In this document: piece after piece, positions 6,001 through 9,000 of the stretch
How the letters are laid out: every line of letters begins with the position of its first letter
How positions within the stretch are numbered: the first letter of the stretch is position 1
Assembly (NCBI RefSeq): GCF_024502345.1
Contig: NZ_JALDNN010000003.1
Direction: 5' to 3' (one strand)
DNA length: 64,000 bases
From: Escherichia coli
Lineage (GTDB): Bacteria > Pseudomonadota > Gammaproteobacteria > Enterobacterales > Enterobacteriaceae
Position numbers: made by a program

Positions 6001-9000
6001 ACTCTAATAACTAAAAATGGCACCCGGAAAATAGAATGAATTTATTTTAAGCTTGCCGAACATGGCTGGCGGCGGAATTAAATTTGGGTAATGACTCCAA
6101 CTTATTGATAGTGTTTTATGTTCAGATAATGCCCGATGACTTTGTCATGCTGCTCCACCGATTTTGAGAACGACAGCGACTTCCGTCCCAGCCGTGCCAG
6201 GTGCTGCCTCAGATTCAGGTTATGCCGCTCAATTCGCTGCGTATATCGCTTGCTGATTACGTGCAGCTTTCCCTTCAGGCGGGATTCATACAGCGGCCAG
6301 CCATCCGTCATCCATATCACCACGTCAAAGGGTGACAGCAGGCTCATAAGACGCCCCAGCGTCGCCATAGTGCGTTCACCGAATACGTGCGCAACAACCG
6401 TCTTCCGGAGCCTGTCATACGCGTAAAACAGCCAGCGCTGGCGCGATTTAGCCCCGACGTATCCCCACTGTTCGTCCATTTCCGCGCAGACGATGACGTC
6501 ACTGCCCGGCTGTATGCGCGAGGTTACCGACTGCGGCCTGAGTTTTTTAAATGGCGGAAAATCGTGTTGAGGCCAACGCCCATAATGCGGGCGGTTGCCC
6601 GGCATCCAACGCCATTCATGGCCATATCAATGATTTTCTGGTGCGTACCGGGTTGAGAAGCGGTGTAAGTGAACTGCAGTTGCCATGTTTTACGGCAGTG
6701 AGAGCAGAGATAGCGCTGATGTCCGGCAGTGCTTTTGCCGTTACGCACCACCCCGTCAGTAGCTGAACAGGAGGGACAGCTGATAGAAACAGAAGCCACT
6801 GGAGCACCTCAAAAACACCATCATACACTAAATCAGTAAGTTGGCAGCATCACCGAAAATAAAATAGAGAGAGTTTTCAATCCGCATGACTTTAAAAAAG
6901 ACAATTTTTAGAAATAAGCCGGATAAAAAAATAGCTTTATCCGGCACTCATATTACAACCAGTTCTTCCGCTTAAAGTACAGATACGGTGCCAGGCCCGC
7001 GAGGATCATAAAGATAATCGCGGCAGGGTAGCCGAAGCTCCACTTCAGTTCTGGCATAAACTCAAAGTTCATGCCATAGCTGGAAGCAACGAGCGTCGGC
7101 GGCAGGAATACCACGGATACCACCGAGAAGATTTTGATGATGCGGTTCTGCTCGATGTTGATAAAACCCATTGCCGCCTGCATCAGGAAGTTCACCTTCT
7201 GGAACAGGGATTCGTTATGCGGCAGCAGGGATTCGATATCTCGCAGGATTTCACGCGCCTGCTCCAGTTGCCCACCCGGTAAACGCGCTTTACGCACCAG
7301 GAAGTTGAGCGCGCGCTGGGTATCCATCAGACACAGGCGAACTTTCCAGCCGATATCTTCCAGTTCCGCCAGCGTGGAGAGCGCCTCGTCGTACTCATCG
7401 CCCTGATGCCCTTCCATAATCACCCGGCTCAACTGCTCCAGGTCGCTATAGATATTTTCAATTTCATCTGCCAACTGTTCGATTTTGGTTTCGAACAGAT
7501 CCAGCAGCAACTCGTAGGCGTTACCGTCTACCATCGACTGGCTACGGGCACGCATACGATACAGACGAAAAGCGGGCAGTTCACGCTCACGCAGAGTAAA
7601 CAGACGACCATCACGGATGGTAAATGCCACAGTGGAGTTACCGGCGTGATCTTCCGCATCTTCAAAGAAGAAGAAGGAGTGAATATGCAGGCCGTCGTCG
7701 TCTTCAAAGAAACGTGCCGATGCTTCGATGTCTTCCAGTTCCGGGCGGGTTGCCAGGCTCTGGCCAAGTTCAGATTGTAAGCGCAGTCGCTCGTCGTCGT
7801 CCGGTTCGACAAGATCAATCCATACTGCATTTACAAGGGGTTGTGACTCTTCGACTTCCAGCCGGGTCAGTCGGTTATTTTCCAGTTGAAATGCGCTCAG
7901 CATGACCGGGACTCCCAATGCTTAAAATATCGGACAGTTCGGTGGGCACACAGAAACAAATTGGGTTTCAGACCATTAAACAGCCTGACTCAGCGCGACG
8001 GGAAAAATTGAGGTCGCTGACAACCGCTAAGGCTATCAGCAAAAAGGGATAGCCTTAGGAGTTGATCCTGGATGACAGGATAGTGAGCCAGTATCTACTG
8101 GGTGTGTCCAAGGCGAATGTCCTCTTAGAGTGATCGTGCGCGCATGTTACGCCAGCAAAATTTTGCCGTCAACACGCAACAGAACACCACAGAACAATAG
8201 TTGAACTTCGCGCTTTTTGGTACTCGTCAAGGTCGCTAACAGGATAAAAAAATCCCACATCCAGGACCTATAATGGCGCATCAGCTACTCATTGGTAAAG
8301 GAATGATCACCTTGAATCTCAAACGGATTTTTCTCGCCCTCACCTTACTTCCCTTGTTTGCTGTTGCCGCTGATGATTGCGCACTCTCAGATCCGACGCT
8401 GACCGTACAGGCGTATACCGTTAATCCTCAAACAGAGCGGGTGAAAATGTACTGGCAAAAAGCCAATGGCGAAGCGTGGGGAACGTTACATGCTCTGCTG
8501 GCGGATATTAATAGTCAGGGTCAGGTGCAGATGGCGATGAACGGCGGCATCTTAAATTTGACGGTTTTTGATATAAAATATAGAAAGAAGGAGGTTTTCT
8601 GAATACCTCCTTCACTGGCGCTCAGTTCGAGAATACGTTAACGCTGTACCGTTTACCGAGCACCTCGGCAGTGGTATCGACAATTTTCTGAATATCATCG
8701 GCAATCGCGGGTTTACTGAATGCGACGGTGTGCAGTTCACCAGCCTGTTCCGCCGTCGCACCATCATGAAAGCGGCTGGCATCGTAAAGCTGGACCCGGA
8801 GTGTCCGGGTATAATCGACATGGCCCATTATTCCTCTCCTGTTCAGTCAGGCGCTATACGCGTTAATAATCACTTTCTTCCGGTTGCGGCTGGGTGACAA
8901 ACTGGTACTTCACCCCATTAGGGACGCCAACGGCTTTTGCTACAGATTCACACAGCAGCGACAGGTCATTCAGAGTCATCGGATATTCGATATCGACGGA

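Follow-up and report, generated by a model that had tools for sequence, protein, structure and literature searches.

The corA segment of this IncHI1 resistance plasmid is very probably the remnant of an IS1 composite transposon, which inserted with a 9-bp target duplication and afterwards lost one of its two IS1 copies. A perfect duplication around the whole unit, an empty site and a full composite at the same position in IncHI1 relatives, and a difference of exactly 777 bp from that composite together point to composite insertion followed by the loss of one IS1. In kind the event is an ordinary one: composite transposition, then IS1 loss. The DNA analysed is a stretch of 64 kb from an Escherichia coli contig, referred to here as the window.

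Structure of the inserted unit

The IS element next to corA, IS1 copy A, was assigned to the IS1 family on its length, both inverted repeats, the insA/insB' reading frames and the A6C frameshift motif, all of which were found. Its ends match the approximately 23-bp IS1 terminal inverted repeats exactly (GGTGATGCTGCCAACTTACTGAT / GGTAATGACTCCAACTTATTGAT). The 9-bp flanks that touch IS1 A are unequal, with TTAAATTTG on the left and GAAAATAAA on the right, as expected for the single arm of a composite. When IS1 A and the 1697-bp passenger are taken together as one unit of 2465 bp, a perfect 9-bp duplication of TTAAATTTG is found on both sides; this 9-mer occurs only three times in the 64-kb window. 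A preliminary description of this DNA had stated that IS1 A lacks a target duplication, which is correct for the IS1 alone but not for the unit as a whole.

Only one IS1 is present at the passenger in the window, and the second is absent. At the joint left in its place, position 8552 (T) is a 1-nt microhomology that can be assigned to either side. Having a single IS1 end, the remaining unit has probably lost the ability to move as a whole, while the intact IS1 A can, to judge from its sequence, still move by itself.

A further copy, IS1 B, is a simple insertion flanked by GAAATACCG and is absent from relatives. An inversion between IS1 A and IS1 B that would have separated the duplications was rejected, since IS1 B has its own perfect duplication. 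The IS1B of pSGB23-type plasmids was also rejected as the same insertion; it lies about 66 bp to the left and has its own flanks.

Table 1. Features of the IS1-corA unit and its borders; positions are those of the window.
Feature	Position	Strand	Remarks
Left target-site duplication, TTAAATTTG	6078-6086		Plasmid DNA; present once in L001, where the site is empty
IS1 copy A, 768 bp	6087-6854	-	Outer end IRR 6087-6109; IRL 6832-6854 faces corA
insB of IS1 A	6102-6605		Intact
insA of IS1 A	6524-6799		Intact
A6C frameshift motif of IS1 A, gagttttttaaa	about 6540-6551		
Passenger, 1697 bp	6855-8551		E. coli chromosomal origin; central segment of the composite minus its last 9 bp
DUF943-family gene (E. 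coli)	6855-6911	+	Last 18 codons and stop
Terminator-like hairpin	6918-6945	-	Directly downstream of the corA stop
corA	6953-7903	-	Intact, 316 aa
Terminator-like hairpin	8014-8042		In the corA leader
ysgD small ORF	8055-8111	-	In the corA leader
Promoter-like site	8144-8172		In the corA leader
yigE'	8273-8551	+	First 93 codons of the chromosomal gene
Deletion joint	8551-8552		TATGATGAA and the second IS1 missing, 777 bp
Right target-site duplication, TTAAATTTG	8552-8560		

Passenger genes and their chromosomal origin

The passenger opens with a remnant of a DUF943-family gene, whose first 9 bp, GAAAATAAA, were the original target of the IS1 on the corA side. The corA gene is intact and has its own terminator-like hairpin, as had been described: its product matches TIGR00383 over the full length (382.8 bits against a cut-off of 200.75) and carries the YGMNF motif at residues 276-280. 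With its leader region and promoter-like site also in place, it agrees with the earlier view that the plasmid has an extra corA, for which Mg2+ transport is predicted. The adjoining 5' part of a signal-peptide gene proved to be yigE', whose N-terminus (MITLNLKRIFLALTLLPLFAVAADDC) resembles a signal peptide by reading of the sequence. Beyond the passenger, the yigE' frame continues as a chimeric ORF for 16 further codons in plasmid DNA. Its stop at 8602 is all that corresponds to the breakpoint formerly placed near 8600; the true joint lies at 8551/8552.

E. coli chromosomes contain copies with 100% identity to the passenger across its 1697 bp, and 5425 of 5426 complete E. coli genomes gave a match to it. 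K-12 is 99.8% identical across the part of the window bounded by the corA stop codon and the yigE breakpoint (6953-8552). A native locus with the DUF943 gene differs from the segment at 3 of 1706 positions, and mobile copies are 100% identical to it, in keeping with the preliminary description of near-identical chromosomal DNA. The 1706-bp centre of the composite is contiguous in the native E. coli locus, where TATGATGAA is genuine yigE sequence.

Empty site and full composite in relatives

The empty-site plasmid (L001) reads GGCGGCGGAA TTAAATTTG ACGGTTTTT, with one copy of TTAAATTTG, and a single-copy empty site was also seen in 46 further rows with a single matching place among 225 records. 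Compared with this relative, the plasmid sequence of the window is otherwise continuous across the site. Comparison with related plasmids bore out the idea of an acquired segment: rather than being universally present with a divergent, plasmid-specific sequence, the corA segment is absent from most IncHI1 plasmids.

The IncHI1 plasmid pSD134209-1 carries the full two-IS1 composite at the identical site, with TTAAATTTG on both sides and the centre oriented opposite to that of the window. It was the only plasmid in the collections with the full composite at this site. The full composite measures 3242 bp and consists of two IS1 copies around 1706 bp containing DUF943', corA, ysgD and yigE'. Two IS1 copies bracketing the passenger are present in relatives L004, L005, L017 and L018. 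More widely, about 3% of complete E. coli genomes carry the composite; it turned up in some 150-175 E. coli records and also on IncC, IncF and other plasmids. No target duplications were seen around the chromosomal composites in three of three examined (CX12, STK77-E and CFSAN061761), and recent transposition of the composite appears to be evidenced at the IncHI1 plasmid site only.

Single-ended forms

Relative to the full composite, the window lacks exactly 777 bp, namely the yigE-side IS1 (768 bp) and 9 bp of yigE (TATGATGAA). Junctions of the window form (type A) were found in 14 PLSDB plasmids, among them pHCM1. Neither PLSDB nor the E. coli genomes contained a plasmid that equals the window exactly at IS1 and corA. 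A mirror-image form (type B), which reads GGCGGCATC, TAAATTTAA and TTCC in succession, is likewise 777 bp short of the full composite, but in the opposite orientation; it was found in 27 PLSDB plasmids (R27 and 26 others), with S. Typhi plasmids and an E. coli O6:H16 plasmid among the carriers. The microhomology at the R27-type joint is 1 nt (A/T).

In pHCM1, from S. Typhi CT18, the junctions are the same as in the window and its IS1 has three marker bases in common with IS1 A; that IS1 is 735 bp long owing to a 33-bp internal deletion, whereas the window copy is full-length. R27 shows the mirror image of the window arrangement, and corA is annotated in the records of both plasmids. Three derived passenger SNPs are common to pSD134209-1, with its full composite, and a type-B S. 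Typhi plasmid. Backbone SNP trees had few informative sites and signs of recombination, and do not fix the number of separate deletions.

Proposed history and alternative explanations

The composite would have been born when two inverted IS1 copies, with their IRL ends inward, came to bracket the segment in E. coli of a lineage where corA has the DUF943 gene as its neighbour. Their targets would have lain within the final 57 nt of the DUF943 gene (GAAAATAAA) and at nucleotide 288 of yigE (TATGATGAA). Using the outer IRR ends, the composite would then have inserted into an AT-rich intergenic site of the IncHI1 backbone and duplicated TTAAATTTG. As outcomes, birth and insertion are shown by the sequences compared, and so is the later decay. 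Homologous recombination between the inverted IS1 copies would have inverted the centre and so produced both orientations; such a flip would be needed because the centre of pSD134209-1 runs opposite to the window. In the window lineage, the yigE-side IS1 and the adjoining 9 bp would finally have been lost, 777 bp in total, joining yigE' to the right copy of TTAAATTTG across the 1-nt microhomology. The reverse order is not available: the composite cannot derive from the window form, since TATGATGAA is native yigE and the 1706 bp are contiguous in the native locus. Replicative inversion as a way back from a single-ended form to the full composite was rejected on paper, the 9 bp beside the second IS1 (TATGATGAA) being native yigE.

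The loss itself most likely occurred by transposase-linked excision, whether through abortive copy-out or through donor resealing after a single-strand bridged or IS1-circle intermediate, by analogy with the loss of ISApl1 from Tn6330. This route is suggested by a deleted length equal to IS1 plus the 9-bp IS1 stagger even though the flanking 9-mers are not repeats, and by the independent loss of an equal length in the other orientation. IS1 circles with a 6-9 bp spacer have reportedly been described. The same history might have ended without transposase, by slipped-strand mispairing or illegitimate recombination across the panhandle of the IS1 inverted repeats, and a 9-bp hairpin between yigE (GGCGGCATC) and IRL positions 4-12 may have helped. 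Tn10 and Tn5 excise precisely through slippage, the joints here have only 1-nt microhomology, and the yigE'/IRL junction can fold into a hairpin (-7.8 kcal/mol with DNA parameters) whose left arm ends exactly at the breakpoint. Slippage is, however, set by flanking direct repeats, and there are none here (TATGATGAA versus TTAAATTTG). Against it also stand the removal of exactly IS1 plus 9 bp at least twice, independently and next to differing outer flanks, and an endpoint 0-2 nt from the IS1 tip each time, and we consider a transposase-free loss unlikely.

One-ended transposition, in which the outer IRR and a surrogate end in yigE would have moved IS1 and about 1698 bp of chromosome to the plasmid, would dispense with the second IS1 altogether. 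Both single-ended forms do fit a fixed unit ending in GGCATCT with 8-bp duplications (TAAATTTG; mirror TTAAATTT), offset by one base, and the last nine retained bases, read on the other strand (GATGCCGCC), match IRL positions 4-12 (GATGCTGCC) at 8 of 9. That 8/9 core is nevertheless displaced by 2-3 nt from the register of the observed end, and the tip-aligned similarity to either inverted repeat reaches 9/23 at best, a value that about 16% of positions equal or better by chance. A surrogate IS1 end in yigE was rejected on these grounds. The explanation would further require that a plasmid of about 200 kb was hit independently three times within the same 9-10 bp (by the unit in each orientation and by the full composite), would make a coincidence of the exact 8-9 bp between the supposed end and the place of the missing IS1 in the parent, and cannot account for the three derived passenger SNPs common to pSD134209-1 and a single-ended plasmid; we judge it quite improbable. 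Less probable again, to the point of being hardly credible, is the model of the preliminary description, an IS1-mediated cointegrate of plasmid and chromosome that was resolved imprecisely, or an adjacent deletion. IS1 generates both cointegrates and adjacent deletions, and the IS1 without its own duplication had been in line with this. But the whole unit is enclosed by perfect copies of a 9-bp site that relatives have only once, the plasmid is otherwise unbroken across that site, and the full composite is found at the same place and differs by 777 bp. A cointegrate or an adjacent deletion, moreover, would have kept an IS1 at the novel joint, where none is present (8551/8552), and would not have left the unit between duplicated target bases. 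On the composite reading, the corA of R27 and pHCM1 can be reread as cargo of an IS1 composite and not as the scar of plasmid-chromosome cointegration.

CorA S289R in IncHI1 plasmids

The window CorA keeps the wild-type Ser289 (codon 7037-7039). Every other IncHI1 corA copy examined encodes CorA S289R, and the change has been reached by all three single-base routes from AGC (AGG, AGA and CGC) in three IncHI1 sublineages. Codon 289 is AGG in pHCM1 and AGA in R27, both Arg, compared with Ser in the window. S289R was not seen in the chromosomal or non-IncHI1 corA copies examined, and no description of CorA S289R was found in the literature searched. Residue 289 lies at the boundary of the periplasmic loop and TM2, 10 residues past the GMN motif. 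With Arg289, the mouth of the pentamer would gain five positive charges. A subunit with Arg289 may be of low activity or dominant-negative, lowering Co2+/Ni2+ uptake or removing the cost of a second corA.

The triple convergence on S289R suggests that the extra corA has a phenotype seen by selection. We tentatively propose, with somewhat less than even confidence in the two parts jointly, that the loss of IS1 plus 9 bp is a reproducible, in-register excision that occurred in two or three independent IncHI1 events, and that positive selection has repeatedly favoured S289R in the plasmid corA. If the former is true, it would be natural evidence that the transposition machinery, and not direct-repeat slippage, sets IS1 excision, with strand transfer taking place some 9 bp beyond the opposite IS1 end. 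If the latter is true, the window would represent a rare IncHI1 plasmid with an unmodified corA allele and an intact IS1, and the convergence could matter for the metal homeostasis of Salmonella and E. coli that carry such plasmids.

Comparison with known systems

The literature searched contained neither a Tn designation for the IS1-corA composite nor an account of it. Tn9 (cat) and Tn1681 (heat-stable enterotoxin) are classical IS1 composite transposons. The unit in the window resembles them in having had its passenger between two IS1 copies, in the use of the outer ends and in the 9-bp duplication, and differs in that one IS1 is gone. ISEcp1 mobilises adjacent genes one-endedly, for example blaCTX-M, and its units likewise consist of a single IS and adjacent DNA inside a direct repeat. 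Unlike those units, the one described here has no credible surrogate end and has a two-IS parent at the same site, and its origin is probably different. For annotation, chromosomal DNA next to an IS without a local duplication should lead to a check of the larger unit for one.

The empty, full and single-ended series offers a setting for studying IS1 excision, and the exact loss of IS1 plus 9 bp without flanking repeats yields a testable prediction about that process. IEE-stimulated, transposase-dependent excision extends to IS1 (preprint 10.1101/2023.06.07.543989). The closest parallel is Tn6330 (ISApl1-mcr-1-pap2-ISApl1), which decays to single-ended and IS-less mcr-1 structures through a series of empty site, full composite and single-ended form, in which the deletions are of nearly constant length and the joints measure 1-4 bp (Snesrud, McGann and Chandler 2018, PMC5821093). 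As in Tn6330, empty sites, a full form with its duplication and single-ended forms that keep the duplication occur on closely related backbones; the loss is close to the IS length with a joint in the 1-4 bp range (1 nt here); and the passenger is a chromosomal capture that keeps the ancestral target halves at its inner ends. In contrast to Tn6330, the IS is IS1 (IS1 family, 9-bp duplication) and not ISApl1 (IS30 family, 2-bp duplication), and the IS copies are inverted, which allows the passenger to turn round; IS loss has fixed it in each of its two orientations. The loss is IS plus 9 bp (777 bp) in both events, whereas losses from Tn6330 scatter around the IS length, and the cargo is a housekeeping cation channel where Tn6330 carries a resistance gene. 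The 'birth and demise' pattern of mcr-1 and Tn6330 would thereby be extended to IS1 and to a housekeeping gene.

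Flanks and boundaries of the IS1-corA unit

The window comes from an R27/pHCM1-family IncHI1 plasmid. IS1 'A', the IS1 copy beside corA, has intact insA and insB frames on the minus strand and unequal flanking 9-mers, TTAAATTTG on the left versus GAAAATAAA on the right. The preliminary description had reported an IS1 without matching flanks, which holds for IS1 alone but not for IS1 plus its chromosomal passenger: TTAAATTTG at 6078-6086 was repeated exactly at 8552-8560, at the joint of chromosomal and plasmid DNA, and occurred only three times in the 64-kb window. An insert-free IncHI1 relative read ...GGCGGCGGAA TTAAATTTG ACGGTTTTT..., with one copy, and was collinear elsewhere. 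At least 46 plasmids had the empty site, among 60 matches listed of 225 junction-region records; the yigE segment was present in at most 57 of the 225. Judged by sequence, the 2465-bp unit of IS1 and passenger is flanked by a 9-bp target duplication of the length typical of IS1, since TTAAATTTG stands on both sides of it and is single in empty-site relatives.

Features of the IS1-corA region and the second IS1 copy of the window
Feature	Position	Length	Strand	Remarks
IS1 'A'	6087-6854	768 bp	minus (insA, insB frames)	IRR 6087-6109, IRL 6832-6854
Passenger, E. coli chromosomal DNA	6855-8551	1697 bp		right of IS1 'A'
DUF943-family gene	6855-6911			final 18 codons
Terminator-like hairpin	6918-6945
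corA, intact	6953-7903	316 aa	minus	TIGR00383 382.8 bits (cut-off for corA call, 200.75 bits)
ysgD	8055-8111			small ORF within corA leader
Promoter-like site	8144-8172			in corA leader
yigE'	8273-8551			first 93 codons
Chimeric ORF	8273-8602			YigE residues 1-93 plus 16 plasmid-derived residues; stop at 8602
IS1 B	22325-23092	768 bp		inverted relative to IS1 'A'; simple insertion, perfect 9-bp duplication GAAATACCG

The breakpoint had been placed near 8600, which is the chimeric ORF stop. Because the yigE ORF continues 16 codons into plasmid DNA, the true breakpoint is 8551/8552. The N-terminus of the chimeric ORF reads like a signal peptide. As the ORF lies downstream of the native divergent corA-yigE intergenic region, it may be expressed. 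Similarity at the junctions outruns the duplication (CGGCGG-AATTAAATTTG versus CGGCGGCATCTTAAATTTG; window 6070-6086 and 8542-8560), hence the 17-bp BLAST overlap at the empty site; we attribute the excess to a GGCGGC motif shared by chance between yigE and plasmid.

In pHCM1 the IS1 copy was 735 bp long, having lost 33 bp internally (window 6451-6483), and the same span, about 33 bp shorter, was seen in the 13 remaining PLSDB plasmids that have the window's junction. Unlike the pHCM1 copy, IS1 'A' is full length; the two had three marker bases in common, and IS1 'A' had four private bases, two of them beside the frameshift motif. Plasmid pSGB23 carried an independent IS1B (L002 1521-2290) about 66 bp left of the corA transposon site (window about 6011-6020), within the same AT-rich intergenic region, and five further plasmids gave the same hit pattern. 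This region seems to be a hot spot for IS1. Neither pSD134209-1 nor the empty-site plasmid had IS1 B.

Origin of the passenger

The passenger was matched in 5425 of 5426 complete E. coli genomes, and window 6953-8552 (corA stop codon to yigE breakpoint) was 99.8% identical to K-12, bearing out the chromosomal origin first proposed. The intact corA, with a terminator-like hairpin of its own, likewise agrees with the proposed extra transporter, a predicted function. K-12 does not have the 98 bp downstream of corA; the whole stretch is contiguous in E. coli lineages with a DUF943 gene beside corA, and the native locus of strain 510016 differed at 3 of 1706 positions. In 510016 a small island missing in K-12 lies between yigF and corA (L008 993-2657), made up of an incomplete CorA-family pseudogene, a YPO3983-family gene carrying a frameshift, and the DUF943 gene. 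Approximately 2030 of the 5426 genomes matched the 510016-type corA downstream stretch over at least 80% of a 136-bp query.

The best passenger matches (100%) were not native loci: they were copies with IS1 on both sides, such as that of CX12, arranged as IS1 (IRR outside, IRL inside), 1706 bp, IS1 (IRL inside, IRR outside). At the two points where IS1 inserted, this composite's inner 9-mers, GAAAATAAA and TATGATGAA, belong to the native chromosome. The IS1/corA junction was found in 151 E. coli records (148 genomes) and the yigE'/IS1 junction in 175 (172 genomes), the latter also on about ten plasmids of other types, including pFC745, typed IncC; it was present on the IncF plasmid pPSS-10_2. 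No target duplication was found around three chromosomal composites (L004, from CX12, L017 and L018). Window 6855-8551 was identical over 1697 bp to the CX12 copy (L004 1500-3196), and base 7373 was C in both and A in the other nine copies compared. This identity could reflect gene conversion from a CX12-type copy or common descent with it.

Full composite and two single-ended forms

Compared with CX12, the window lacks TATGATGAA and the second IS1, 9 + 768 = 777 bp. The joint has 1-nt microhomology, position 8552 (T) being assignable to either side. The two-IS1 form cannot derive from the window form, since TATGATGAA belongs to yigE itself. INTERMEDIATE exists: pSD134209-1 (IncHI1, E. coli) carries the full composite at the exact window site, with TTAAATTTG on both sides and the central segment in the opposite orientation. 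As the two IS1 copies are inverted repeats, the centre could have been flipped by recombination between them.

The window's single-ended form, type A, was found in 14 PLSDB plasmids, pHCM1 of CT18 among them. Its mirror image, type B, was found in 27: R27 and pP-stx-12 carried it, as did about 22 records named 'pHCM1' from S. Typhi, two further Salmonella plasmids and one plasmid of E. coli O6:H16. In type B, yigE' adjoins the left-hand backbone (...GGCGGCATC/TAAATTTAA/TTCCGCC, other strand) and the kept IS1 is on the right-hand side. Type B is pSD134209-1 less G + IS1 + TTCATCAT, or less that block shifted one base: a loss of exactly 777 bp with 1-nt microhomology. Possible breakpoints (bp lost outside IRL, outside IRR) were (9,0) or (8,1) for type A and (8,1) or (7,2) for type B.

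Passenger SNPs 6986T, 7039G and 7434A were common to pSD134209-1 and a type-B S. Typhi plasmid, and the R27 haplotype differed from theirs. At backbone SNP 10520, R27, S. Typhi type B and pSD134209-1 fell into one group, type A and the empty-site plasmid into the other. This pattern fits a single insertion after which the yigE-side IS1 was lost independently at least twice and plausibly three times, a count that draws on few informative sites and to which recombination among IncHI1 plasmids may contribute. TW10590 and WP8-S17-ESBL-05 were without the corA-side IS1, the boundary lying exactly at GAAAATAAA, a loss different in kind from the 777-bp loss.

CorA codon 289

Serine (AGC) at CorA codon 289 (window 7037-7039) was common to the window, native E. 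coli, five composite copies on chromosomes and the IncF copy; over the 61 bp around this codon, eight PLSDB plasmids outside IncHI1 equalled the window. Every other IncHI1 copy examined had Arg (S289R): AGG in 4/4 type-A relatives (pHCM1-type), AGA in R27 and the O6:H16 plasmid, and CGC in pSD134209-1 and three type-B plasmids (named carriers: S. Typhi plasmids, pP-stx-12 and pSE81-1706). Since these codons exhaust the single-base changes that turn AGC into an Arg codon, the pattern points to repeated, parallel selection. Had gene conversion occurred in the window, wild-type Ser289 might have been restored, not retained. Residue 289, mapped with an offset of 35 onto T. maritima CorA, falls at the periplasmic loop/TM2 boundary, 10 residues past the GMN motif.

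Mechanism of the IS1 loss

The sequences show that two IS1 copies captured the chromosomal corA segment, that the composite transposed to the IncHI1 site with a 9-bp duplication, and that one IS1 was then lost; we infer the chemistry of the loss. The preliminary description had proposed cointegration with imprecise resolution, or an adjacent deletion. That model is contradicted by the duplication around the unit, the empty site in relatives, the existence of the full composite and a novel joint without IS1. One-ended transposition that used a surrogate end would likewise produce a unit of fixed extent, flanked by 8-bp duplications, but it requires three independent hits at one site, leaves the SNPs common to full and single-ended forms unexplained, and has no credible end sequence (best 9/23 matches, chance level).

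The 777-bp deletion had one end 0-2 nt from the IS1 tip and equalled IS1 plus its 9-bp stagger, the same amount as precise excision. The flanking 9-mers were not repeats (TATGATGAA versus TTAAATTTG or its complement), so the register seems to follow from the transposition machinery, not from homology between repeats. IS1 circles with a 6-9 bp spacer from one flank were reportedly described by Sekine in 1997 and Shiga in 1999.

The last nine kept yigE' bases, GGCGGCATC (window 8543-8551), are an inverted repeat of IRL positions 4-12, GATGCTGCC. The resulting hairpin (L004 3188-3217) has eight Watson-Crick pairs and one G-T pair, a 12-nt loop and -7.8 kcal/mol as DNA, and the deletion begins exactly where its left arm ends. 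It may be chance, a product of IS1 target choice, or a contributor to excision. Transposase-independent loss by slippage across the IR panhandle is possible, perhaps helped by this hairpin.

A register set in this way agrees with the model proposed for ISApl1 loss from Tn6330, in which a 3'-OH left in the flank by single-strand bridge formation primes copy-out before the strand crosses to the opposite flank at short microhomology, giving deletions near IS length with 1-4 bp joints (PMC5821093; 10.1101/2023.06.07.543989). The preprint, in part citing Kusumoto 2011, states that IEE stimulates IS1 excision and that IS1 forms circles (10.1101/2023.06.07.543989).

Comparison with known systems

That some IncHI1 plasmids carry corA is annotated and has been noted before (10.1101/334409); our literature search turned up no account of the IS1-corA composite or its decay. 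The initial observation was partly confirmed and its interpretation partly supported, while its mechanism falls. The corA feature is a decayed composite transposon, ordinary and well explained, that is instructive in two details. It works like the Tn9-type IS1 composites and decays like Tn6330.
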